Origin: a virus
DNA length: 64,000 nt
Strand: one strand, 5' to 3'
IMG/VR virus record: IMGVR_UViG_3300046000_009133
Coordinates: 5,668-69,667 of that record
The notes beneath the pieces are model-generated. The model had not been told where the DNA came from. It saw nothing but the letters and a program-made list of their open reading frames with translations, and did not search any database. Each line of letters opens with the position of its first letter. Position 1 is the first letter of the stretch. Shown here in pieces: positions 2,371 to 50,918 of this stretch. A program made the position numbers and the translations under genes.

Positions 2371-2610
2371 ATGAGCATCACCATCGAAAACACCCTGCGG
2401 CGCGTCGTAGGTAATTGCACCGGCGTCGATCCCGCTTCGATTGAACCTGATACACCTTTGACCGGTGACAGCCTTGATCACGTCGAAGTGCTCATGGAAG
2501 TCGAAGATGAATTTGGCATTCAAATCGACGAGGTGAAGTGGGAAGACTGCAAAACCTTCGCCGACTATCTGGCTTTGGTCAAAGCGACCTATGCAGAGGT
2601 GGCCGCATGA
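2371..2610 (+). CDS. acpP: acyl carrier protein (phosphopantetheine attachment site)
   Basis: 79 aa, acidic; GDSLDHVEVLMEVEDEFGIQI matches the ACP DSL motif and helix II; GGAG SD. Confidence 0.88.
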   Translation: MSITIENTLRRVVGNCTGVDPASIEPDTPLTGDSLDHVEVLMEVEDEFGIQIDEVKWEDCKTFADYLALVKATYAEVAA

Positions 2611-2843
2611 ACGATGTTGTCCCGCTTTTCCACAGCGAAGATCGTTTCACCGCAGCAAACAGCATTTACTGCCCCGAAGCGCCAATGGTCGTTGACGTTG
2701 AGCCGGAAGACCCCGGACCCAACGTCAACTGCGGCAATCGTTACGACGCCGATCCTCTGGAATGGATATCGACACGGGCGATGTTTGCAGCTTCGGTTGG
2801 TTTTCTCGCGGCGATGGTCATCATTGCGGTGCTGCCATGGTAG
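2607..2843 (+). CDS. hypothetical protein with C-terminal transmembrane helix
   Basis: ATGA overlap with ACP; hydrophobic C-terminus AMFAASVGFLAAMVIIAVLPW. Confidence 0.6.
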   Translation: MNDVVPLFHSEDRFTAANSIYCPEAPMVVDVEPEDPGPNVNCGNRYDADPLEWISTRAMFAASVGFLAAMVIIAVLPW

Positions 2844-3025
2844 ACTTCGATCCCCGCTGCACTCGCTGCGGCTGCCAGCTGAAGGTCGTGCTGTTTCAGG
2901 TGCGGGTTCCTCGCAACTTACCTCTTAATGCAATGGAACATGCGCTATCTAGCGACCCCCTTCGCTACGACTACGAGCAGCGCGAAGAAATTTCAGACTG
3001 CCCCCGCTGCACTGGCTCGTATTGA
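2837..3025 (+). CDS. small zinc-ribbon-like protein
   Basis: CTRCGC ... CPRC cysteine pairs; overlaps the upstream stop. Confidence 0.55.
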   Translation: MVDFDPRCTRCGCQLKVVLFQVRVPRNLPLNAMEHALSSDPLRYDYEQREEISDCPRCTGSY

Positions 3026-3158
3026 GGATATCATGAAGCATTTTATTTTTGACTATGATGCGATCCTCCGCCCCGGATTTACTATTTACCGCCTGACCCT
3101 TCGGTGTCCAGCCCCGTGTGGGCTGGCGTCCAAATGGCCAAAAGGAGAATAACAGATC

Positions 3159-3704
3159 ATGGATATCTTGAAAATTACAGCAGCGGATGTTGACGGCAAG
3201 AATTTTTATGTCGGACCGGACGTGTCGAATTGGCATGGCTCGATTGAGATTGCCGCAAGTCTGGGGCTTGTTACTTTTCCTGGCAAGATTTCGGCAAAAT
3301 TCAATATTTCCATCAAGGCTGGCACATCCATCGAGGCTGGCGGGTCCATCGAGGCTGGCTGGTGCATCGAGGCTGGCGGGTCCATCAAGGCTGGCGGGTC
3401 CATCGAGGCTGGCTGGTGCATCGAGGCTGGCGGGTCCATCAAGGCTGGCGGGTCCATCAAGGCTGGCAAATCCATCAAGGCTGGCTGGTTCATCAAGGCT
3501 GGCTGGTCCATCGAGGCTGGCAGGTCCATCAAGGCTGGCTGGTTCATCGAGGCAAAAACCATAGGCTGTAAGCTGCGAATTTTTGCTAGCCTGTGCAGTT
3601 GGCGAATCCCGTCAGAGCAGGAAATGACAATCACCGGGAAAATAGTCTCCGGGAATATCGCTTTCGGCATTCACAAATTGCCGGAGGCGCAGTCCAATGG
3701 CTGA
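3159..3704 (+). CDS. hexapeptide-repeat (beta-helix-like) protein
   Basis: About 14 x-I-[EK]-A-G-x repeats encoded by 18-bp DNA units; AAGGAG SD. Confidence 0.8.
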   Translation: MDILKITAADVDGKNFYVGPDVSNWHGSIEIAASLGLVTFPGKISAKFNISIKAGTSIEAGGSIEAGWCIEAGGSIKAGGSIEAGWCIEAGGSIKAGGSIKAGKSIKAGWFIKAGWSIEAGRSIKAGWFIEAKTIGCKLRIFASLCSWRIPSEQEMTITGKIVSGNIAFGIHKLPEAQSNG

Positions 3705-25137: not shown

Positions 25138-27492
25138 TTATGCCGACAACCGCAGCACAGCGTCACCGTATCCGGTTACGTCGATCAAAACCTGCGACCC
25201 CGCGACAACCGTTGACCCGACAGAAATCGTCCCGCCTGTCGAAAGCACCTCAACCGTGCGACCATTGAGTTCGCTTGGGATTGCAACGGCCGTGTTCGTC
25301 AGGGTCTGGTGGGCTGTGATATAGACGTAATCCTTGCCGTCCATGCTGACGATCACGCCGGGCACCGTCAGGTCGGTGTCGGTTGGCAGGAATGGCGCGC
25401 GGAAAGCAGTCACCAGATCATTGTTGCCAACGGCTGCGTCACCCGCCGCGAAATCAACGGCAGTCGGATACATTTTCTCTGCTGACGAGAAAAACAGCAC
25501 GTCATTCACTTTTGCCGCCCGTGCCGCAGGCACACCCAACCCGACATCGCGGCTATAGCCAAATAGATGCCCCGAAACTGCAACCCCGCCACTGTCTTTG
25601 CCGATCAGTGCAAAATGGCTGGCCGGATCGGCAGGATTTGTGCAGGACGTGCGCGGGATACGGATTTCTGCGGCGTTGGCCGTAATGTCCGCGACGGATT
25701 GGAAATTGTAGCCAGATACGACCGACACTGACGGCACATAGAGGCAGACCGCGCTTTGCATCCCCGGCGTGCTGTCCGCAGGCAGTGCCAGCCGTTGCAA
25801 CTGGATGCCGCCCCAATAGTCGGTTGCCGCAGAACGGCGATAGGCGTCTTTAACACCATGCCCCGCACGGACTGACATCGCGCCCCATTGGTTCCACTCG
25901 TAGACATAAGCAAAACGCACTTGCTGTTTGGCCGAGGTATAGTTGGGCGTCACTGCCCCAACTGCTGCAATCAGCGCGTCTTGTTGAGCGGCGGCGTTGA
26001 TCAGCGCGTAGGTTTCGCCAATGATCAGCCGCGCGCCAGCATAGACCCCATCTGCAGTAATGGCCGTGTCGTCGAGGCGCACATTCACGACATAATCCGT
26101 GATGATCGGGTGCATCTGGATTTGCGCCGATGCGCTGGCCGTGATGGCCCCGGTATTGGTAGCGCCAGACACATGCGTAAAATTGAGGCTGGACGGGGCT
26201 GACGTGGCGATGGACCACTTGTCTTGCGTCCCGGTATAGCGCCGCACGAATGACAGCGTTCCGGTCGTGTCGATCAGCATCATCACCCAGTTGCTCGTCC
26301 CGTCCGACCAGATTGACCCAACATCCGCGTTGGCCTTGCCATGGGCAGCCGCAGTCAGGCGATAGCCAATCACACCATGCGATCCGCCTAAATACATGCT
26401 GTTGAGCCGGATCGGACATGCCTCGTCAAATCCGCCAAAATGCACCAGCGTTGACGTGTTGAACGCTGCAATGGTCGAGATGGCGGTGGTCGATTTTGCA
26501 ATAAAGCGGATGCCCCGGAAATCAACAACCTGCGACTGTATTAGGCGGCTGCGATCCAGCGCGCGGCCAACGTCCAGTCGCCAGACCACATCATAGGCGG
26601 TGGATTGCTGCGCCCCGGCACGGATGTAAAGCTCCGATCCTTGCCGCGCGACTGTGATTTGTCCGGTTTCGACCGGGTTAAAATCAGCAGCAGCGGCGGT
26701 ATAGACGCCACCGGAATAGGCAGCGAAAGACAGCGCCGATGCACCCTCGTTGAGCATGGTCGCAGCCGAAACCAGATCAACATGCGCCGCCGTCACTGGC
26801 GTTGCGGCAGAGAAGTCCGTTGTGTTGCGCATGTTTGGCGCGACAGAAACCGCAGCGGCAGGCGTCGTGAACGTGATCTGACGCGGCAATGCGGCTGGAA
26901 GCGGGTTGAACCCGGTCGTGATGTAGGAATGCAGCGATCCGTCAGCGTTGTAAAATTGCAGGAACCCGTTGGTGTGGAGATACGTCCCACCCGGTGCGCC
27001 ATGGATTGACAGAGTGTAGGTCGTGTTTGCTTTTAGCATCGGCGTCTTGCGGCTGACCCACCACGACCAGCCGCTGCCAGCCGTGGATATTGCGGACAGC
27101 AGCCCAGTCGTGTTGCTCCGCACGCGCGCGAGTTGATTCGCAGTCGTGGTCCCGATGGCCGGGGCCACATCACCAGACGGCGCGGCCACGTCCGAGATCG
27201 CCGGGTTCCAGTTGTTTGTCAGGTCAGGGCTGGAAATGATGCTCAACACGTCAACCTGCGGCAGCGGTTCGATAATCGAATCTGCGGCGGCCCGCGCTGC
27301 ATCGCGGGCGGCTTCGGCGTTTTGCGCCCATGCCATCGCTTCATCGGAATATGTCTTACCAATCGCCTCATCAATGACATCAGCAACGAAACGTTGGCCC
27401 ACCCGCAATTTTGCAGCGTCAATTTGACCTGTCAAATTGTCAGGATAAAGTGATGGGATAGCATCGCGGAGATCATCAGTGTCTACAGGCAT
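25138..27492 (-). CDS. large tail fibre / receptor-binding-like protein
   Basis: 784 aa, Ala/Thr/Gly- and beta-rich; N-terminal PDNLTGQIDA..LR segment; inside the tail operon. Confidence 0.65.
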   Translation of the reverse strand: MPVDTDDLRDAIPSLYPDNLTGQIDAAKLRVGQRFVADVIDEAIGKTYSDEAMAWAQNAEAARDAARAAADSIIEPLPQVDVLSIISSPDLTNNWNPAISDVAAPSGDVAPAIGTTTANQLARVRSNTTGLLSAISTAGSGWSWWVSRKTPMLKANTTYTLSIHGAPGGTYLHTNGFLQFYNADGSLHSYITTGFNPLPAALPRQITFTTPAAAVSVAPNMRNTTDFSAATPVTAAHVDLVSAATMLNEGASALSFAAYSGGVYTAAAADFNPVETGQITVARQGSELYIRAGAQQSTAYDVVWRLDVGRALDRSRLIQSQVVDFRGIRFIAKSTTAISTIAAFNTSTLVHFGGFDEACPIRLNSMYLGGSHGVIGYRLTAAAHGKANADVGSIWSDGTSNWVMMLIDTTGTLSFVRRYTGTQDKWSIATSAPSSLNFTHVSGATNTGAITASASAQIQMHPIITDYVVNVRLDDTAITADGVYAGARLIIGETYALINAAAQQDALIAAVGAVTPNYTSAKQQVRFAYVYEWNQWGAMSVRAGHGVKDAYRRSAATDYWGGIQLQRLALPADSTPGMQSAVCLYVPSVSVVSGYNFQSVADITANAAEIRIPRTSCTNPADPASHFALIGKDSGGVAVSGHLFGYSRDVGLGVPAARAAKVNDVLFFSSAEKMYPTAVDFAAGDAAVGNNDLVTAFRAPFLPTDTDLTVPGVIVSMDGKDYVYITAHQTLTNTAVAIPSELNGRTVEVLSTGGTISVGSTVVAGSQVLIDVTGYGDAVLRLSA

Positions 27493-42803: not shown

Positions 42804-42973
42804 CAGATTCGCCCCCGATTGTAATCATCCCAACGCTCTTGCCAGTATTCCTCCATCTCGTCGAAGCAAGGCGAGCAACTGATCATCCAGTTGGAGTCCT
42901 CATCGACGTAGGCGGTATTCATGCGCCGCCGCGCAACAGTGGTAGCTTCTTTTTCACAGCATGGACACTTCAT
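42803..42973 (-). CDS. small zinc-finger-like protein
   Basis: CPCC...RR.NTAY.D...N....C..C. Confidence 0.6.
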   Translation of the reverse strand: MKCPCCEKEATTVARRRMNTAYVDEDSNWMISCSPCFDEMEEYWQERWDDYNRGRI

Positions 42974-44964
42974 GCGGCACACATCCAAATCACCATTGCA
43001 TCGGTCTGCACCGGCACCGCGTCGATGATTATCCCGTCCAGTTCGGCCAGATGCCGGTCGAGGCGTCGCCCGATCCAGGTGACGCAGGGCACGGCCCAAC
43101 TGTTGCCGACTTGCTTGTAGCGGGGTCCATCAGCAGCCATTCCCTTGCCGACTGGTACTAGGGTCCAATTTTTAGGAAAGCCCTGGAGTGATTCACATTC
43201 TTCGGGCATCAAACGCCGCACCGCCATTTCGGTCGAAGCTATGATCGGCTGCCCGCGACCCGTGCCGTCCTCTGAACCATCGAATCCTTCTGCCTTCAGC
43301 GTGTGAGTGATGTCGCCAGTCACGCAGACAGCCAGTTGCCCGCCGCCGTTTACATGTGACCCGGAATGGTTCATCGCCCGCATCGTCGGTGCCAGATCAG
43401 CCGTCTCATCATTGCCGTAGTCCTTCGACGAGAACGCCAGCACATGCGGCTTGTCACCACCACCACCACTCGCCCGAAGAGTCCCGGCCACCTCGTCACC
43501 CAGTTCCGCCGTGCCGCCGCCTTCCCTGCCGCGCAGAGCGACTGATATGGCGACTGCTGGCGGATGGTTGCCCGCGGCCAAGCTGAAGCAGGGGTCACCC
43601 CACTGCGGGTTGCTGCCGTTCTCGGGGCTGGTGATCTGCGTCGTGTTGAAGGGAAGAACGGCAACCGCGTGCTGCTTTGAGGATTGCAGCGTGAACATCG
43701 GATCACCATCACTGCCAATGCCAATGCCAGCGCGCGGGTCGGTGGTGCTGTTTCCGGTTCGCGCACCAGCTTCCAGAATCGGGATGACAGGTTGCAACAC
43801 TGCAGGGAAGCGGTTCTTTTCAGGCATCGTTTGGCCCTTGTGCAGCACCGCGTCGAGCGTCTGGCTGATGGGCGAACCGTCCCACCATTGCGGGGCTAGA
43901 TCAGCAGCGCCGGCCACCTGGTGACCGGCGTACACCGATTGCATGGTGGCCTTGTTGAATCCACACTCGGTATCCAGAGCACCGACTAATTCAGCAGCGC
44001 CATCCAATCCGCTTCCGACAAGATATGCTCCCCGCTGGCTGAACAGTTCTTGGTTGCTTTGTCCAATTCCACCTGTGTTGAAGGACTGGTTGAGACTGGG
44101 ATGGGGGTTGGCGGGGTTGTCCCAGTGACTGCCGCGGTAAGCGCCTTCATCAGAGGTTCCGGCAACGCTTTCCCCCGCGTCTCTGCTCGGCGCAGAATCC
44201 CGGCGCAGGCCGTCGAACTCAAGTAATACGACTTGGGGATCAAACCCCTCACGAGCACTTGCGACAAGGAACACACGCTCGCGTCGTTGGGCCAAACCGA
44301 AATATTGGGCATCGCTGGATCGCCAACCGACTGTCCTGCGGGGTCCAGCAACAGCACCTGCACTTGGCCACTTTGCCACATGCTCACTGGTTTCTTTTTT
44401 CCATGTCCAATGGGCAGAGGACCGTCCCTGTTCAGGTCGTGGACCCGGTTCGACGGGATATTCCACACCCACGAGTGCTGCGAGAAAATGTCCGAATGCG
44501 TTACCGCTGTCGCTTCTGACACCTGGAACGTTTTCCCAGAAGACAACACAAGGCTGCTGTCCGCGAGCAGCGCGGCGATCGTCGATGGCATTGGCAAGTT
44601 CCACGAATGAGAGTGTCAATTGGCCGCGAGGGTCACTCAAACCGCCGCGCAGCCCCGCGATCGAAAACCCTTGGCACGGCGTACCTCCGCAAAGGATATC
44701 CGGTGCTTCGGCAGCACCAGTTCGCACAGCTTCCGGCAGCCGGGTCATATCGCCCCAGTTGACGATTCTGTCGCCCCACTGGATGCGCTTCAGCGATTTC
44801 TCTGTACCTTCCATTGGAAAGCGTGGCGCAGTCGCGCCGAGACGATGTGCCAAAACCGCAGACGCAGAAACATCAACTTCTGCCAGCCAAGCAGCCTCCC
44901 AACCAATGGAGTGCCATGCAACGCTCGCCGCTTCAATTCCCGAACACACCGAACCGAACCGCAT
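42970..44964 (-). CDS. DNA (cytosine-5) methyltransferase with expanded variable region
   Basis: CSGI (I), GGTPCQGFS (IV), WENVPG (VI), QRRERVF (VIII), RRLMPEECESLQGFP (IX), YKQVGNS (X). Confidence 0.96.
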   Translation of the reverse strand: MRFGSVCSGIEAASVAWHSIGWEAAWLAEVDVSASAVLAHRLGATAPRFPMEGTEKSLKRIQWGDRIVNWGDMTRLPEAVRTGAAEAPDILCGGTPCQGFSIAGLRGGLSDPRGQLTLSFVELANAIDDRRAARGQQPCVVFWENVPGVRSDSGNAFGHFLAALVGVEYPVEPGPRPEQGRSSAHWTWKKETSEHVAKWPSAGAVAGPRRTVGWRSSDAQYFGLAQRRERVFLVASAREGFDPQVVLLEFDGLRRDSAPSRDAGESVAGTSDEGAYRGSHWDNPANPHPSLNQSFNTGGIGQSNQELFSQRGAYLVGSGLDGAAELVGALDTECGFNKATMQSVYAGHQVAGAADLAPQWWDGSPISQTLDAVLHKGQTMPEKNRFPAVLQPVIPILEAGARTGNSTTDPRAGIGIGSDGDPMFTLQSSKQHAVAVLPFNTTQITSPENGSNPQWGDPCFSLAAGNHPPAVAISVALRGREGGGTAELGDEVAGTLRASGGGGDKPHVLAFSSKDYGNDETADLAPTMRAMNHSGSHVNGGGQLAVCVTGDITHTLKAEGFDGSEDGTGRGQPIIASTEMAVRRLMPEECESLQGFPKNWTLVPVGKGMAADGPRYKQVGNSWAVPCVTWIGRRLDRHLAELDGIIIDAVPVQTDAMVIWMCAA
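43986..44597 (-). CDS. overlapping +1-frame ORF inside C5-MTase, resembling the M.EcoHK31I beta polypeptide
   Basis: SLSQVL....P..YYLS..AC.GILRRA..RGK.LPEPL..AL; similarity recalled, not computed. Confidence 0.6.
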   Translation of the reverse strand: MPMPSTIAALLADSSLVLSSGKTFQVSEATAVTHSDIFSQHSWVWNIPSNRVHDLNRDGPLPIGHGKKKPVSMWQSGQVQVLLLDPAGQSVGDPAMPNISVWPNDASVCSLSQVLVRGLIPKSYYLSSTACAGILRRAETRGKALPEPLMKALTAAVTGTTPPTPIPVSTSPSTQVELDKATKNCSASGEHILSEADWMALLN

Positions 44965-45033: not shown

Positions 45034-45717
45034 TCAGAGTCTTTCTGCAAAAGTCCGTATCTGTTTCCACCCATTGGATTTTTCCACTTCGAACGTCCCA
45101 CCCTTGCGTTTTCCTTGCACTTCGACCTGCTCCCAATCCAATTCAAAGAATTCGCACTGGAGCGGTCCCACCAGTAAGACGGCGATTAGAATCGTCGCAC
45201 GAGCTTCAACGGGAACAGATACTGTCCAGTCCTCGCCAGCGAGTCGTCCGGTCACCACATGAAAGGCATACTGCGCACCCTTGATGATTGCATAGAGGTC
45301 TATCTTCTCCTGCGCTGCCCTCACATCATCATCACGCGGAAACGCAGGATGAGCGCCGCACATTCCAACAAATCCTGCTACAACGTTGACTGCTCCATCG
45401 GCGGATGCGTTGCGAACTCGCTTCTGTTTTTCATTCAGATCAGGCGATTTCCCTATGGAAAGCCAAGCCTCATCGACCTTCAACACTTGTGCGAGAGTCG
45501 AAAGCGTCTTGAAGCGCGGACGCGCTTCTCCAGCGAACCACTTTCGCACGGTTTCCTGTGTCACCACCTGACCCGACTTCTTTTCGATCTGGGCAACGAA
45601 CCAGCCCAGACGCCCATAATTGGGCGGCGGTACATCTGGGTTTCCGTCACAAGCTTGGGCCATGCGAACGGCGAAATCTGGATGCGTTACCTTGTCAATT
45701 TTGGCCATCAACTTCAT
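45034..45717 (-). CDS. XRE/CI-like repressor
   Basis: VTQETVRKWFAGEARP....LAQVLKVDEAWLSIG HTH; operator-like sites on both sides. Confidence 0.8.
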   Translation of the reverse strand: MKLMAKIDKVTHPDFAVRMAQACDGNPDVPPPNYGRLGWFVAQIEKKSGQVVTQETVRKWFAGEARPRFKTLSTLAQVLKVDEAWLSIGKSPDLNEKQKRVRNASADGAVNVVAGFVGMCGAHPAFPRDDDVRAAQEKIDLYAIIKGAQYAFHVVTGRLAGEDWTVSVPVEARATILIAVLLVGPLQCEFFELDWEQVEVQGKRKGGTFEVEKSNGWKQIRTFAERL

Positions 45718-45773: not shown

Positions 45774-48164
45774 TCAACATTTATAGAGAAAATTTTGAAT
45801 TATGCGATCCTGAGTTGCACCTTTCTCTTGCAACACGTCCAATGCGCGTTCATCATAGGTGCCTTCAGCAATGATGGGATAAATCAGCACTTGCTTCGTT
45901 TGTCCAGCGCGAGGCAGCCGCATGTTGGCCTGCTGCCACAGTTCCAGCGACCAGGTGAGATCGAACCATGCCGCGAGGTGCCCTCCATACTGGAGGTTTG
46001 TGCCGTGGCCGATCGAATTATGAGAGACGAACATATCGCCTTGCTTGTTGCGGATCAAGAAGCGATGGCGCGGCCCGCAGTTCACTAGGTCGTAGACATC
46101 GGCTCTCCGCTCAACATCAACTCCAGAGAACGCTGTGCCATCAGTCTGCGCCGGCGACCTGTCGCGTTCGGCCCCGTTCCGTACATCGAAGCCTTCGCGT
46201 CCCTCACAGCTTCTTCTGCACTCATTCCTTGCTTCATGCGACTGCGCAGACGAGTCTTTGTTATCCCGCTCCGTCGACACACTTCCGCAAGATGAAGATG
46301 TTCCCCCTGAAATCCCAGAAGCAGGTTGTTCCGTTTGTTTGACTGTTGTGCGAACGGAGTGACCCAAGTGCAGTTTTCGACACAGTAGTTGCCGTTTACG
46401 TCCACTCTTTCCAAAGTGGAAAACTCCCGGTAGTTGGTAGCCATGTCTCTGAAAAAATTCTCGAAAGTTCGCCAGTCCCGCGATACTGAAATGCCTCTGG
46501 CGCCGTAGTTCTCCCAATCCTGCGACTTCGGGTTCAGACAGCGATCCTTCATGCCGTTCCAAATCCTGTATATCCGACTGGCGCTCATATGATGATGTTT
46601 TTCTGTCTGCAGAGCACAATGTCGGCAGAACTTTCGTCCCGACGAAGTGTGTTTTTTGACATTCTGCATCGTGGTGCAGGACATCGCCCAGCATTCCGAG
46701 CATCGCACGATAACGAGCGTCATCTCCCTTGTAGGTGTACTGCGCCCTTTCTCTAGTTGCGTAAGAATTTCCAACACTATCAGCCCTTTCCCATAGATCG
46801 TTGACCAGAATCTTGTGATCCGGTGTCATTTCGATACCAAATACGCTGATTACGGGCTTGAAGCCCGAGTACGAACATCCCTCGTGTTCGACAAACTGCT
46901 CACCATCGAAGACGCGATCAGTGCTCAGGACATCCGCGATCTTGATCCATCCGCGGAACTCGGTCAAAACTTCTGTCTCACCAGCCAAGCAGGCGGGGTG
47001 AGCTGCCAATTTCTTGATCTTTCCCCGATTCCAGTCAGCAACCAGATCACCCTTATACTCGTTGGCAACCACCGCGTCAGGATGGTGCTTCAGGATCATG
47101 TCTTTGGTGAATTTGTAGCCGTAGAAGATCAACCAGTTTTCATCCGGCGCCATTTCAAGAAGTTCGTTCAGCGCCTCAATCTTTGCCTCGTGAACGTGCG
47201 CCACGCTGCGGTCTTCGCGATAGGCACCACCACCGGCCATCTGCATGAGTTTATTCGCCAGAACGCCTTTCGAGACCGCCTCAACATCGTGGATCTGCGA
47301 GTAGAGCGTCTTCTCAAGCTCGCGGTATTCCTCCATCGCTTTGGGCGGCAGCCGCACGCGCATCGGGATGAACTGTGCATCCTCAGACACCTTCTTCGGG
47401 GGAATCGTGACGGCAAGGTCGCCCATCTGCGACAGGATGCCTGTTTCAGCATTTCCCTTCGGCGTGATGGTGTGATTGTAAGGGTCTTTGTCGAACCACC
47501 GTTTTTCGAAATCGCTCTTGTCGCGTCCGAGCGCGGCACCCTGATCCAGCAGATACGATTGACCCCAGAGCCCTTTCAAATCGCCGGGTGTGCCGGTCAA
47601 CTCGACGATGCGCTTGATCTTGCGGCGGGCAGTGGTCATCACACCGAAGCGAGTCATGTTGCCGCCCGCTCGCGCCTTGACCACAATCTCGCCGGTTGCC
47701 TTGTTGACGGTCTTCACTTTGGTCGGCAGAGTGCGGCCTTCCCCGGCACGGAACCGGGACGACTCGTCGATGATCACCATATCCCAGTACCAGTTTTCGA
47801 TGGTGCGGATTTGTTTGGCGAGCCACGGTAAGTTTTCGAAGTTGATCGTGGTGATCTCGGCGCGACGGTTGATCGCGCTAATGCGTTCTTCTGCGGTCCC
47901 AACCGCGACCGCGCAACTGACGGCTTGTGTCCGCTGCCAGACTTTCAGTTCGTCGGGCCAAGTGTTCATGGCGACAAAGCGGGGGCCGATCATAAGAACG
48001 TGCTGCACTGTCAACCGGTTCAGCAAACTGACAGTTCCATCCAGACTACCACCTGTCTTGCCTTGGCTCATGTCAGCAATGATCATCACCGCCTCACGCT
48101 CTTGCACGAGGCGGCTGATCAGTTTCTGCCCGTCCCAGAGGTCGTCAGGACTGCGAATGGGCAT
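45774..48164 (-). CDS. SNF2-family helicase containing an intein
   Basis: DMSQGKT, IIDESS, LTGTP, HPA|SIGHGTNLQ, Q...RL.R.GQ; ATG at 48164 overlaps the dcd stop. Confidence 0.93.
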   Translation of the reverse strand: MPIRSPDDLWDGQKLISRLVQEREAVMIIADMSQGKTGGSLDGTVSLLNRLTVQHVLMIGPRFVAMNTWPDELKVWQRTQAVSCAVAVGTAEERISAINRRAEITTINFENLPWLAKQIRTIENWYWDMVIIDESSRFRAGEGRTLPTKVKTVNKATGEIVVKARAGGNMTRFGVMTTARRKIKRIVELTGTPGDLKGLWGQSYLLDQGAALGRDKSDFEKRWFDKDPYNHTITPKGNAETGILSQMGDLAVTIPPKKVSEDAQFIPMRVRLPPKAMEEYRELEKTLYSQIHDVEAVSKGVLANKLMQMAGGGAYREDRSVAHVHEAKIEALNELLEMAPDENWLIFYGYKFTKDMILKHHPDAVVANEYKGDLVADWNRGKIKKLAAHPACLAGETEVLTEFRGWIKIADVLSTDRVFDGEQFVEHEGCSYSGFKPVISVFGIEMTPDHKILVNDLWERADSVGNSYATRERAQYTYKGDDARYRAMLGMLGDVLHHDAECQKTHFVGTKVLPTLCSADRKTSSYERQSDIQDLERHEGSLSEPEVAGLGELRRQRHFSIAGLANFREFFQRHGYQLPGVFHFGKSGRKRQLLCRKLHLGHSVRTTVKQTEQPASGISGGTSSSCGSVSTERDNKDSSAQSHEARNECRRSCEGREGFDVRNGAERDRSPAQTDGTAFSGVDVERRADVYDLVNCGPRHRFLIRNKQGDMFVSHNSIGHGTNLQYGGHLAAWFDLTWSLELWQQANMRLPRAGQTKQVLIYPIIAEGTYDERALDVLQEKGATQDRIIQNFLYKC
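46017..46991 (-). mobile_element. intein (325 aa) in helicase motif V
   Basis: Block A CLAGETEVLT; block B MTPDHKIL; block F VYDLVNCGPRHRF; block G VSHN followed by Ser+1. Removal restores HPASIGHG.NLQ. Confidence 0.93.
46085..46777 (-). CDS. HNH-type homing endonuclease in +1 frame nested inside the intein
   Basis: H.MS.SRIYRIWNGMKDRC.NP....W.NYG.RGI.V...W..FENF..DM.....TLER.DVNGNYC.ENC.W.....Q..NKR; N-terminal CxxC pairs. Confidence 0.88.
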   Translation of the reverse strand: MLEILTQLEKGRSTPTREMTLVIVRCSECWAMSCTTMQNVKKHTSSGRKFCRHCALQTEKHHHMSASRIYRIWNGMKDRCLNPKSQDWENYGARGISVSRDWRTFENFFRDMATNYREFSTLERVDVNGNYCVENCTWVTPFAQQSNKRNNLLLGFQGEHLHLAEVCRRSGITKTRLRSRMKQGMSAEEAVRDAKASMYGTGPNATGRRRRLMAQRSLELMLSGEPMSTT

Positions 48165-48613
48165 CAGTTTTGCAGGATTGCCGGGATGGGACGGTCGGCC
48201 TGCCCTTGATACTTGCCACGGTACTGCGCCGGTTGCCGCAACTGATGGAACAGAACCTGCGCGATACCAGATCCCGCCACAATTCGAAGCGGTTTCCACC
48301 CGTGGTAAATCAACTCAAGAGTCAACCAACCTTCCCATCCGCTTTCGATCACGGTGTTAAAGACCGACAGTTTGCGCCGTGCCCAGGTGCTCTTGTCATG
48401 AACCACACCGACCAGATCGTCAGGCATCTGGAAATGTTCAATCGTGGATGCCAACACGAAGCGGCGCAGCGGATGCAGCACCACATCCTGTTTAATGCGA
48501 ATGTCGTAGCCTGCTTCGCTCAGGCCATAGGAGACACCGTGGAGTCGCATCTTCGCACCCATCATATCCGTGATGGGTGCTGCATTCAGAAGTGCTTGCT
48601 GATTGACGATCAT
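48164..48613 (-). CDS. dcd: dCTP deaminase / trimeric dUTPase superfamily
   Basis: SYGLSEAGYDIR, DKSTWAR, NTVIESGWEGWLTLEL, IAQVLF, KYQGQ. Confidence 0.88.
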   Translation of the reverse strand: MIVNQQALLNAAPITDMMGAKMRLHGVSYGLSEAGYDIRIKQDVVLHPLRRFVLASTIEHFQMPDDLVGVVHDKSTWARRKLSVFNTVIESGWEGWLTLELIYHGWKPLRIVAGSGIAQVLFHQLRQPAQYRGKYQGQADRPIPAILQN

Positions 48614-48614
48614 T

Positions 48615-50918
48615 TCAGCCGCACTTGCTGTGGCCGCAGTCGATGCACTGGAAACACCCGGCTTCATGCTTCACGTTCCCCGAAAAGCACTTCGGGCACA
48701 TCTCGCCACCCTTGCGAGGCTCTGACACCTCGACCTCGTGACCACCATCATCAACCATCGCAGCGCGAGTCTCGGCGATATAGCCGATCGCAATCATGTG
48801 CCGCTCGATCACCCCACCAATGGCAGCCAATACCGAAGGAATGTATTTCCCCTCGACCCATGCACCACCCTTCGGATCGAAGACGGCTTTCAGTTCTTCC
48901 GCGACGAAGCGACTGTCATGCGGGCGACGGAAGACCGCGGAGATCATGCGAGTCAGAGCCACCGTCCAGGCGAAATGCTCCATGTTCTTGGAATTGATGA
49001 ACACCTCGAACGGCCGACGCTGACCGTTCTCCACAATGTCGCTGATGGTGACGTATATCGCGTGGTCGCTCAACGGCCACTTGATCTTGTAGGTTGCGCC
49101 GTCTAGCGCGTCGGGGCGTGCGACGATCTCGCCAACTAGGGGCACCACTTCTTTCTTCGGTGCTTCGGTCACGCTCAGAACCGAACCGGTTACATCATTC
49201 GGCCGATAAGTGGTACAGCCTTTGCAGCCAAGTTCATAAGCTCTAAGATACACCGACTTGAAGTCTTCGAAGGTGATATCTTCGGGCAGGTTGATGGTCT
49301 TGGAAATGGAACTATCGACCCACTTCTGAACTATACCGGTCATTGCCAAATGCGCTTCGGGGGAAAGATTTTGTGAGGTCACAAAATAATCAGGAAGCAG
49401 ATCGTTTGACCAGTTCGAAAAGCCGTCGCTGTTGTCGTTCCAAAACTCTCGGTAGGCAGCAACAGCATAATCTTCGACGATTTCTTCACGTTTCGAACCA
49501 TCGTCCTGCAAGACCTTTCGAACATAGGACAGAGCAAATACAGGTTCGATACCAGAAGAAACGTTACCTGCATAAAGGCTGATGGTGCCGGTCGGTGCAA
49601 TAGACAACAACAGAGCATTGCGGATGCCGTATTTTGCGATTTCACTTTTAAGGCTGACAGGCAACATGCGACCGGCGAAACGTGGTGCCTTCAAGAACTC
49701 ATCAGCGTCGAATGTTTGAAAAGAACCTTTTTCGATCGCCAAACCAAGACTGGTATTATAGGCAGCTTCGGCAATCAGGGCCATGACTCGGTCAGTCCAA
49801 GCCACAGCAGCCTCTGAGCCGTAAGTCAGGCCGCACATGATCAGGGCGTCAGCCAATCCCGTCACACCCAAGCCAAGTTGCCTGTCGCTTTTGGCTTTCA
49901 ACATCTGCGCTTCAAGAGGGTAGTTACTCACCTCAATCACGTTGTCCATTGCACGGATCGCAGTTTCAACCACTTCTTCCAACCGATCCATGTCGATCCA
50001 CGAAGCCTCGGTAAAAGCATTTCGAACGAGCATAGCCAAATTTATCGACCCAAGAAGGCAGGAAGCGTATGGTCCCATTGGCTTCTCTGCGCAAGGGTTA
50101 GTGGTGGCAATAGTTTCTATATACCCTATGTTGTGATCAGCATTCACGCGGTCAATGAAAATAACACCAGGTTCAGCAAAGGCATAAGTATTGCCCATGA
50201 TACGATCCCACAGGTCGCGTGCCTTGATCGTTTTTTCCGAAATCGTTTCCCCATGTCGGTTCTCAAAATGCAACCGCCACGGGGCATCCTCTTTTACCGC
50301 GCCCATGAAAGCATCTGTGACCAACACGGAGAGGTTGAACATACGAAGTCGGGCAGGATCTCGCTTTGCTTCAATGAACGCTTCAATATCAGGATGATCG
50401 CAACGCATCGTCGCCATCATCGCGCCGCGCCGACTGCCTGCAGACATTATAGTTCTGCACATGGAATCCCAAACGTCCATAAAAGATAATGGTCCTGAAG
50501 CATCGGCTGCCACACCCTTCACTTCAGAACCCATGGGGCGAATAGTGCTGAAATCGTAGCCGATCCCACCACCCTGCTGCATGGTCAAGGCAGCTTCCTT
50601 CAGATGCGAAAAAATCCCATCCATGGAATCCGGTATTGTGCCCATAGTATAACAGTTCGCAAGCGTGACTGCTCGACCTGTTCCAGCGCCAGAAATGATG
50701 CGACCAGCAGGCGAAAACTCGCGGCTCACCATGATGTCGTAGAACTGCTTTTCCCAATGGGTTCGATTAAAAACACCATCTTCCGCAGCAGCCAACGCCT
50801 TAGCAACCCGCCGCCAAGTATCATTCATGGTTTGATCAATGGGCGTGCCATCGGCAGCTTTGAAACGATACTTCATATCCCAAATCTGATGGGAAATCTG
50901 CGGCAGTTCATCCGTCAT
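48615..50918 (-). CDS. nrdJ: class II (B12-dependent) ribonucleotide reductase with C-terminal TSCPD/Zn-ribbon
   Basis: PAGRI, NCY, TNPCAE, CLLGSINL, IAPTGTIS, KGCTTYR, terminal C..CG.SKC; no NrdB gene. Confidence 0.95.
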   Translation of the reverse strand: MTDELPQISHQIWDMKYRFKAADGTPIDQTMNDTWRRVAKALAAAEDGVFNRTHWEKQFYDIMVSREFSPAGRIISGAGTGRAVTLANCYTMGTIPDSMDGIFSHLKEAALTMQQGGGIGYDFSTIRPMGSEVKGVAADASGPLSFMDVWDSMCRTIMSAGSRRGAMMATMRCDHPDIEAFIEAKRDPARLRMFNLSVLVTDAFMGAVKEDAPWRLHFENRHGETISEKTIKARDLWDRIMGNTYAFAEPGVIFIDRVNADHNIGYIETIATTNPCAEKPMGPYASCLLGSINLAMLVRNAFTEASWIDMDRLEEVVETAIRAMDNVIEVSNYPLEAQMLKAKSDRQLGLGVTGLADALIMCGLTYGSEAAVAWTDRVMALIAEAAYNTSLGLAIEKGSFQTFDADEFLKAPRFAGRMLPVSLKSEIAKYGIRNALLLSIAPTGTISLYAGNVSSGIEPVFALSYVRKVLQDDGSKREEIVEDYAVAAYREFWNDNSDGFSNWSNDLLPDYFVTSQNLSPEAHLAMTGIVQKWVDSSISKTINLPEDITFEDFKSVYLRAYELGCKGCTTYRPNDVTGSVLSVTEAPKKEVVPLVGEIVARPDALDGATYKIKWPLSDHAIYVTISDIVENGQRRPFEVFINSKNMEHFAWTVALTRMISAVFRRPHDSRFVAEELKAVFDPKGGAWVEGKYIPSVLAAIGGVIERHMIAIGYIAETRAAMVDDGGHEVEVSEPRKGGEMCPKCFSGNVKHEAGCFQCIDCGHSKCG

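Follow-up and report, generated by a model that had tools for sequence, protein, structure and literature searches.

A mobile intein whose mobility gene lies in another reading frame is, in our reading, what interrupts the SNF2-type helicase gene of the phage DNA analysed here. The window, as we call the whole stretch, is 64,000 nucleotides (nt) of the IMG/VR record IMGVR_UViG_3300046000_009133, a virus record of 69,667 bp rated complete; the phage comes from lake water. The intein would sit in a conserved motif of the helicase, and its mobility gene would be a separate cistron in the +1 frame, between the splicing regions. We put the probability of this explanation as a whole at about 0.85. 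According to it, ribosomes would initiate within the helicase mRNA to make the nested protein, which would cut helicase alleles without the intein in co-infecting phages, near the AHPA/SIGHG junction. Repair would then copy the intein and the nested gene into the cut allele, and the intein, with an unstructured spacer of about 227 amino acids (aa), would leave the helicase precursor by protein splicing.

The intein and the gene nested within it

Comparison with intein-less homologues placed the insertion exactly. The 'DNA helicase' of the Rhodobacter phage RcMaeve aligned in BLASTP with the window helicase in two blocks (59% and 80% identity), and reads AHPA/SIGHGTNL without interruption, whereas the window has 325 residues between AHPA and SIGHGTNL. 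A helicase frame open through a 325-aa intein had been proposed in a sequence-only reading of this DNA, and its coordinates were confirmed by this alignment. The site is also uninterrupted in L073, the IMG/VR helicase nearest to that of the window (66% identical; AHPA/SIGHGT), and AHPA/SIGHG is continuous in two-piece matches to 23 Rhodobacter phage records. The intein opens with CLAGETEV (Cys1 codon at 46991-46989) and closes with FVSHN, its His-Asn ending at 46017 and Ser+1 following. Cys1, T56 and H59 (in TPDH), H324 and N325 are invariant among 41 aligned relatives, and in the C-terminal splicing region V299, D301, G306, R308 and F311 are invariant as well. The window therefore carries all the residues of a class 1 intein, a protein-splicing element of predicted Hint fold, namely Cys1, the T-x-x-H of block B, a C-terminal His-Asn and a +1 nucleophile, in an element inserted in frame at a conserved site and absent from orthologues. 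A profile of the intein family matched the PDB chain 'NEQ068' (E 4.4e-4), which we take to be one half of a split intein. Coordinates of the features are collected in Table 1.

Table 1. Helicase gene, intein and nested gene in the window, with positions counted from its first nucleotide.
Feature	Position	Strand	Details
SNF2-type helicase gene, host of the intein	45774..48164	-	796 aa from ATG 48164
N-extein	46992..48164	-	ends ...KLAAHPA; aligned to intein-less homologue
Predicted intein	46017..46991	-	325 aa, Cys1 ... His-Asn; between AHPA and SIGHG of the helicase
N-terminal splicing region	46778..46991	-	intein nt 1-214; motifs CLAGETEVLTE..., MTPDHK; helicase frame only
Candidate Shine-Dalgarno sequence	46784..46792	-	purine-rich GGGAAAGGG, 6 nt upstream of the nested GTG
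Nested gene, +1 frame	46085..46777	-	230 codons, GTG start, TAG stop; endonuclease-like protein
Spacer (overlap DNA in helicase/intein frame)	46098..46777	-	about 227 aa between the splicing regions, open
C-terminal splicing region	46017..46097	-	VYDLVNCGPRHRFLIRN...FVSHN
C-extein and stop codon	45774..46016	-	begins SIGHGTNLQYGG...; RcMaeve helicase C-terminus 80% identical

The centre of the intein frame had been said to lack a nuclease, and indeed it matched no nuclease family in Pfam, while PHROG matches fell only on residues 16-73, which belong to the N-terminal splicing part. Residue composition of the spacer (57% disorder-promoting, 24% hydrophobic) is only suggestive of an unstructured segment. 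The same DNA holds the intact 230-codon open reading frame (ORF) that had been reported in the +1 frame, and both frames are free of stop codons over about 690 nt. The predicted protein has an N-terminal CxxC...CxxC pattern, the core motifs YGARGI and ERVDVNGNY..NCTW, and a helix-turn-helix-like C-terminus; one copy of its gene is present in the whole 69,667-bp record. Its TAG (46085-46087) falls within the Asp-Leu codons of VYDLV in the C-terminal splicing region, and across the helicase-clade inteins the nested stop lies 37-70 nt ahead of the intein end.

The start of the nested gene is fixed in position. Its first codon is found at intein nt 215 in all 38 unique helicase-clade inteins (ATG in 36, GTG in two, including the window), and relatives carry TGGGTGGAGGC or a variant of it where the window has its GGGAAAGGG tract. 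GGAG or GAGG occurs within -18..-4 of the nested start in 21/38, and a looser purine word resembling a Shine-Dalgarno sequence in 27/38. The sequence-only reading held that a nuclease-like protein is made separately; the gene does have its own start at a fixed position, and from this we infer separate internal initiation. The gene nevertheless lies entirely within the helicase gene, and in this it differs from a free-standing homing endonuclease gene; those of its relatives that lie on long contigs probably do stand alone. Programmed ribosomal frameshifting, which would fuse the endonuclease to the intein in part of the precursor, is scarcely credible as an alternative. The two frames do share a strand and an mRNA, but such a fusion needs two opposite shifts, the nested gene has its own conserved start site and its own stop, and RNA folding around the start was not significant (z -0.13). 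A look-up of RNA sequencing runs listed none that contains this stretch.

Related loci and selection on the two frames

A protein search with the intein segment returned 231 proteins at E <= 0.001. Of the 120 that were listed, 118 cover the full 325 residues with 27-42% identity, and P0081 and P0100 are internally shortened. The junction H-P-x/C...H-N/S is present in 117 of the 118 full-length matches; most of these inteins lie in proteins with SNF2-family Pfam domains. The remaining one, P0109, is in a family-A DNA polymerase. None of the 120 carries the motifs of the nested protein in frame, and among longer proteins just two in-frame fusions of the nested protein were found (424 and 471 aa), a scarcity that is weak evidence of absence.

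At the DNA level, single-sequence scans of IMG/VR with the intein or the nested protein returned no close relative, but a scan based on an alignment of eleven intein segments did find relatives, giving 60 loci from IMG/VR that, with five from genomes, make 65. Forty-six of these have a full-length intein, an open intein frame and a +1 ORF of 195-257 codons, which in every case matches the nested protein of the window (31-49% identity, E 4.7e-24 to 4.3e-68); the +2 frame reaches just 23-143 codons. A related ORF is present in +1 in six further loci (L007, L061-L065) and in +2 in one (L059), and two loci cut by a contig end (L005, L046) retain a +1 homologue. The homologous ORF is thus out of frame in 53 complete inteins and two cut ones, 55/65 loci, and in frame in none. 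The other loci comprise seven mini- or shortened inteins (L047, L050, L052, L053, L057, L058, L060), two with broken frames (L054, L066), and a terminase intein (L067) in which LAGLIDADG-like motifs, read by eye, are in frame.

Additional inteins were seen at two of these loci. The polymerase of L056 (2-3520) contains another intein further upstream, whose central region differs, and the helicase of L047 (305-3346) has an upstream intein with LAGLIDADG-like motifs, again read by eye.

An ordinary in-frame endonuclease domain could in principle be masked by two compensating indels arising in assembly or sequencing. We consider this extremely improbable, and nothing was found in its favour. Contigs of two other lake-water runs, assembled separately though possibly from one campaign, span 45774-48069 (run X2) and 45774-47253 (run X3), and both show 0 differences and 0 gaps relative to the window. 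We exclude an assembly error, against which the sequence-only reading had already argued for the case of a simple frameshift, because the contigs of other runs agree and the 55 related loci share the arrangement; the missing in-frame counterparts, both among the 65 loci and among the 120 listed proteins, argue the same way.

We then asked how the two frames are kept open. Over the 693-nt overlap the nested frame contains only its own stop codon, the intein frame none and the third frame 13. In 20,000 synonymous resamplings of the window's nested ORF, the intein frame was free of stops in a fraction of 0.0001 under a host codon-usage model and 0.00005 under shuffling, with a mean of 8.1-8.4 stops predicted against 0 observed. 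Synonymous shuffling of 43 unique family sequences gave a mean expectation of 10.7 intein-frame stops, and again 0 were observed; the third frame averages 17.3. The double openness is more than chance, and selection explains both frames.

Nucleotide diversity by codon position over the 43 unique sequences showed which frame is constrained in which part of the element. For intein-frame positions 1/2/3 it was 0.308/0.248/0.595 in the N-terminal splicing region, an ordinary coding pattern, and 0.305/0.129/0.612 in the C-terminal one. Within the overlap the intein-frame values were 0.606/0.42/0.371 and the nested-frame values 0.426/0.378/0.594; diversity peaks at position 3 of the nested frame, so that this frame supplies the 'wobble' position there. 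Proteins read from the overlap had a mean pairwise identity of 0.265 for the intein frame and 0.449 for the nested frame. Ratios of nonsynonymous to synonymous substitution rates (dN/dS, by the Nei-Gojobori method) were obtained from two pairs at a useful, intermediate distance. The pair L022-L034 gave 0.12 for the nested and 0.81 for the intein frame, and the pair L009-L029 gave 0.07 and 1.63, respectively, with 0.06 in the N-terminal splicing region; the other 18 pairs, more than 98% identical and with few changes, leaned weakly in the same direction. Purifying selection acts on the nested frame; in the overlap, the intein frame is unconstrained apart from the exclusion of stops. This is the pattern that had been predicted from the window alone, where the element was described as dual-coding, with an intein frame that need only stay open.

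These data bear on a further alternative, in which the +1 ORF is a decaying, functionless endonuclease remnant that is open only through recent entry. Homing endonuclease genes often decay once fixed, and the mini-inteins and the two frameshifted relatives would suit such a history. However, the ORF is intact in 46/46 full-length loci despite the 31-49% protein identity, whereas a remnant would have been favoured by stops in +1 in most relatives. The low nested dN/dS, the high diversity at the nested third position and the conserved start position also argue against a remnant, which we regard as very improbable.

Nature of the nested protein and signs of mobility

Several observations weigh against an intein with a separately encoded mobility gene. 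On the intein side, the TIGR01445 intein_Nterm model scored 20.6 bits on the window intein, below its cut-off of 24.5, and Pfam returned no match to it; among the relatives only 2/41 matched Vint and 1/41 Intein_splicing. At L005 the intein frame has a stop 13 nt from the contig end, and the frames of L054 and L066 are broken. The nested gene of the window starts with GTG, and its purine tract is weaker than those of the relatives; the strict GGAG or GAGG word covers only the 21/38 given above, and the contrast in dN/dS depends on only two pairs. The other points concern the class of the nested protein. No Pfam HNH model and, at cut-off, no NCBIfam nuclease-family model matched any of 76 members of the nested family, and the nested-protein profile matched no PDB sequence at E 1 or even at E 10. 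The family core reads E-R-x-D...N-C-x-W...Q..N-K, in which R124, C136, W138 and Q144 are invariant, and D126, N135 and N147 almost invariant. HNH_3 proteins carry H-H-x-D at the corresponding core position. The invariant Arg presumably occupies the place of the HNH_3 catalytic His, and the usual general-base His of HNH enzymes may therefore be missing from the family.

The description 'HNH-type' in the sequence-only reading agrees with the match of the nested ORF to PHROG 3377, labelled 'HNH endonuclease' (E 4.9e-47), and finds no backing in the Pfam and NCBIfam HNH models; for six nested ORFs, curated HNH models gave no match even at E up to 10. The ORF matches five nuclease-named PHROG families in all ('HNH endonuclease' or 'restriction endonuclease', E 9.7e-15 to 4.9e-47). 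Four of them, 3377, 374, 2081 and 953, bear the HNH label (E 4.9e-47 to 9.7e-15), and such labels are annotations, not tests. RefSeq likewise names two related phage proteins, APSE-1 P46 and SO-1 gp39, 'HNH endonuclease'. The label of the nested protein is unverified and taken from PHROG family names only; nuclease activity is predicted. Relatives of the protein are widespread, with tblastn matches in 930 phage records and 178 homologues in the protein database. In a collection of 5.8 billion proteins the window's nested ORF is absent as a called gene, and the best match is 60% identical. A protein atlas placed it among viral 'hypothetical protein' clusters only; the nearest named neighbours have NUMOD-type domains at a low share, and are leads only.

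The nested protein might instead be no nuclease at all, but a DNA-binding or regulatory derivative of a homing endonuclease, in which case any spread of the intein would occur via a nuclease acting in trans or by descent only. The missing HNH matches across the 76 members would fit, as would the AP2 DNA-binding domain matched by 3/76, the few matches to helix-turn-helix or NUMOD models, and the invariant Arg at the presumed position of the catalytic His. We judge this unlikely. The five nuclease-named families match at low E values, the protein occupies the place of intein endonuclease domains, and the ORF is intact in all 53 complete loci that carry it. The patchy distribution of the intein among close helicases and the discordant identities of inteins and exteins also argue against it.

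Evidence on movement comes from these last comparisons. The nearest helicases, L073 and those of the Rhodobacter phages (about 59% identical), are intein-less. Between L039 and L040 the inteins are 99.9% identical, against 97.7% and 94.1% for the flanks, and across the L031-L049 cluster the inteins are 98.5-99.9% and the flanks 94-98% identical. The reverse is seen between L017 (intein at 2501-3400) and L018 (intein at 614-1513), where exteins share 91-94% of their DNA sequence and inteins 77%. The patterns of L017-L018 and L031-L049 suggest intein exchange between related phages, and patchy presence together with the discord between intein and extein identities suggests active movement.

Loss is indicated by mini-inteins of 145-197 aa at the helicase site used in the window, in L050, L052 and L053 (2501-2986 at most) and L047 (2501-3091). 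They retain ...ARYTYQGDDA..., a segment overlapping the nested gene's 5' end, which fits loss of this gene by internal deletion. Taken together, these comparisons provide hints of homing and decay of the intein, not proof.

The broken frames differ between the two loci concerned. A single frameshift in the overlap of L054 (88-2452) divides the helicase into N- and C-terminal parts and also cuts the nested gene short, and L066 (2414-3500) has several frameshifts, with fragments of the nested gene spread over the three frames. Decay, a split-intein state and assembly errors are all conceivable causes.

A broader proposal, which we put forward tentatively and consider rather doubtful as a whole, is that the window holds the first recognised member of a large and old clade of phage inteins that occupies the SNF2 helicase motif and two sites in family-A DNA polymerases. 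The mobility gene of this clade would never be in frame, forming instead an obligate nested cistron with a conserved start, and its nuclease-like family, without the usual HNH catalytic His, might cut in a variant manner or serve only as a DNA-binding partner.

Occurrence in named phages, known systems and the surroundings of the helicase

The intein matches 192 records of a phage collection, 145 of them Salmonella phages. We inspected the records of APSE-1, SO-1, GB2A, SFCi1 and vB-SeS-01, and that of RcMaeve for the intein-less allele. A nested +1 ORF is present in the polymerase inteins of Shewanella phage SFCi1 (224 aa) and Caulobacter phage GB2A (219 aa, in an intein of 306 aa), and a nested +2 ORF of 248 aa in the 299-aa polymerase intein of the Salmonella Jerseyvirus vB-SeS-01; none of the three is annotated. 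The 306-aa intein of APSE-1 polymerase P45 has a nested +1 ORF of 222 aa, a 141-aa part of which is annotated as P46, and the 299-aa intein of Sodalis phage SO-1 gp38 has a nested +2 ORF of 253 aa (gp39), recorded as belonging to a group I intron. APSE-1 and SO-1 share both the intein and the nested family with the window (nested ORFs E 2e-23 and 2.5e-9 to that of the window, respectively), but their host gene is a family-A DNA polymerase and not a helicase.

Some of these annotations may need revision. In APSE-1 (L069, NC_000935.1; 677-3658, 2931-3353) the +1 frame stays open over 222 aa, beyond the annotated P46, whose start may lie further upstream than annotated. In SO-1 (L070, NC_013600.1; 1094-4282, 2578-3336) gp38 and gp39 carry the note 'type I self-splicing intron', and the polymerase frame runs continuously through the intein CLHRHTQV...LVAHN/C; the intron note looks like a misannotation. 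In vB-SeS-01 (L072, OP494211.1; 1660-4758) a neighbouring helicase is also annotated as intein-containing.

The sequence-only reading had suspected that similar architectures were already reported, and such reports exist for other nuclease families. The accessible text of a preprint on actinophage inteins (Gosselin, Arsenault, Gogarten; bioRxiv 10.1101/2025.01.02.630785) describes an endonuclease VII-like gene placed out of frame, in frame 3, with an open intein frame that has no recognisable structure, and inteins holding antisense LAGLIDADG or Vsr-like genes; HNH endonucleases appear there in frame only. Its authors propose that a free-standing endonuclease gene invades the intein. As far as that text goes, these inteins resemble the window in having a same-strand, out-of-frame endonuclease between the splicing blocks and an open intein frame. 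They differ in nuclease type, in the frame used and in their hosts (polymerase, capsid, terminase and thymidylate synthase), and the window is set apart by the fixed nested start with its upstream purine tract and by a very large metagenomic family.

A second preprint (Phillips, DeSimone, Gogarten; bioRxiv 10.64898/2026.09.14.751524), in the portion available, reports a +2-frame LAGLIDADG endonuclease in a cyanobacterial dnaX intein. The likeness there lies in the purifying selection on the endonuclease frame, the raised dN/dS of the overlapping intein frame, and the coexistence of mini-intein and empty alleles. The dnaX case differs in being a LAGLIDADG gene in +2 on a bacterial chromosome, whereas the window has a PHROG-3377-type protein in +1 in a phage helicase. 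Both preprints, in the parts accessible, credit the first notice to Gorbalenya 1998.

Two other systems are comparable in part, judging from the sections of the articles consulted. Hidden out-of-frame HNH insertions of the ShiLan type in phage methylase genes (Arsenault et al. 2025, PMC11855218) also place an HNH-labelled gene inside a phage gene whose frame stays open. These are described as having no splicing domain and no detectable ribosome-binding site, whereas the window has splicing flanks and a purine tract. Fractured genes, in which split inteins accompany free-standing endonucleases (Dassa et al. 2009, PMC2677866), likewise combine a separate endonuclease cistron with splicing halves, and coding overlap occurs at its end. 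In the account given there the host is split between two ORFs and the coding overlap extends over 6-69 bp, whereas the window host is continuous and the whole 693-nt gene overlaps it.

The architecture is therefore already described (2025-2026) for other nuclease families, and the window family adds to it. The window has an endonuclease-family ORF between the splicing blocks and the corresponding selection pattern, the two published marks of an out-of-frame intein endonuclease, and 55/65 loci have the ORF. A literature search, which left most subscription journals outside its scope, found no paper reporting the nested nuclease-like family in a shifted frame of SNF2 or PolA inteins, nor one describing the APSE-1 or SO-1 nested genes as out-of-frame intein endonucleases.

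What makes the window family stand out is its size, its fixed internal start, its mostly unannotated or misannotated presence in well-known phages and the nature of the nuclease-like protein. Gene callers pass over genes nested in longer genes, as the records of SFCi1, GB2A and vB-SeS-01 illustrate. The family provides a large natural data set of overlapping frames, one of which needs a folded protein and the other openness only. It supports the idea that mini-inteins become mobile through invasion by a free-standing endonuclease gene, and an unconstrained spacer of about 227 aa that is presumably compatible with splicing is of practical interest for intein engineering.

The helicase frame is open upstream of the tabulated start as far as a GTG at 48299 (ORF 45774-48299, minus strand, 841 aa). 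The true start is likely ATG 48164, which gives a product equal to the 796-aa database protein P0001. The Pfam SNF2-rel_dom match to the helicase is below threshold (22.7 bits against a cut-off of 24.9, E 6e-05). Between 42970 and 50945 the window has the order ribonucleotide reductase, a small ORF (48164-48667), helicase, an ORF at 45034-45717 and a methyltransferase; that of RcMaeve is reductase, deoxycytidylate deaminase, helicase and a helix-turn-helix protein. This parallel in gene order indicates a distant relationship between the phage studied here and that Rhodobacter phage group.

Elsewhere in the window, the same-strand nested ORFs at 25850-26419 and 43986-44597 have no PHROG match. 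The cytosine-C5 DNA methyltransferase (42970-44964, minus strand) is long, at 664 aa. Its residues 1-641 align to just 288 positions of the PHROG 116 profile, and other methyltransferase families match residues 1-253 or 465-641 only, so that the middle 200 or so residues look like an insertion.

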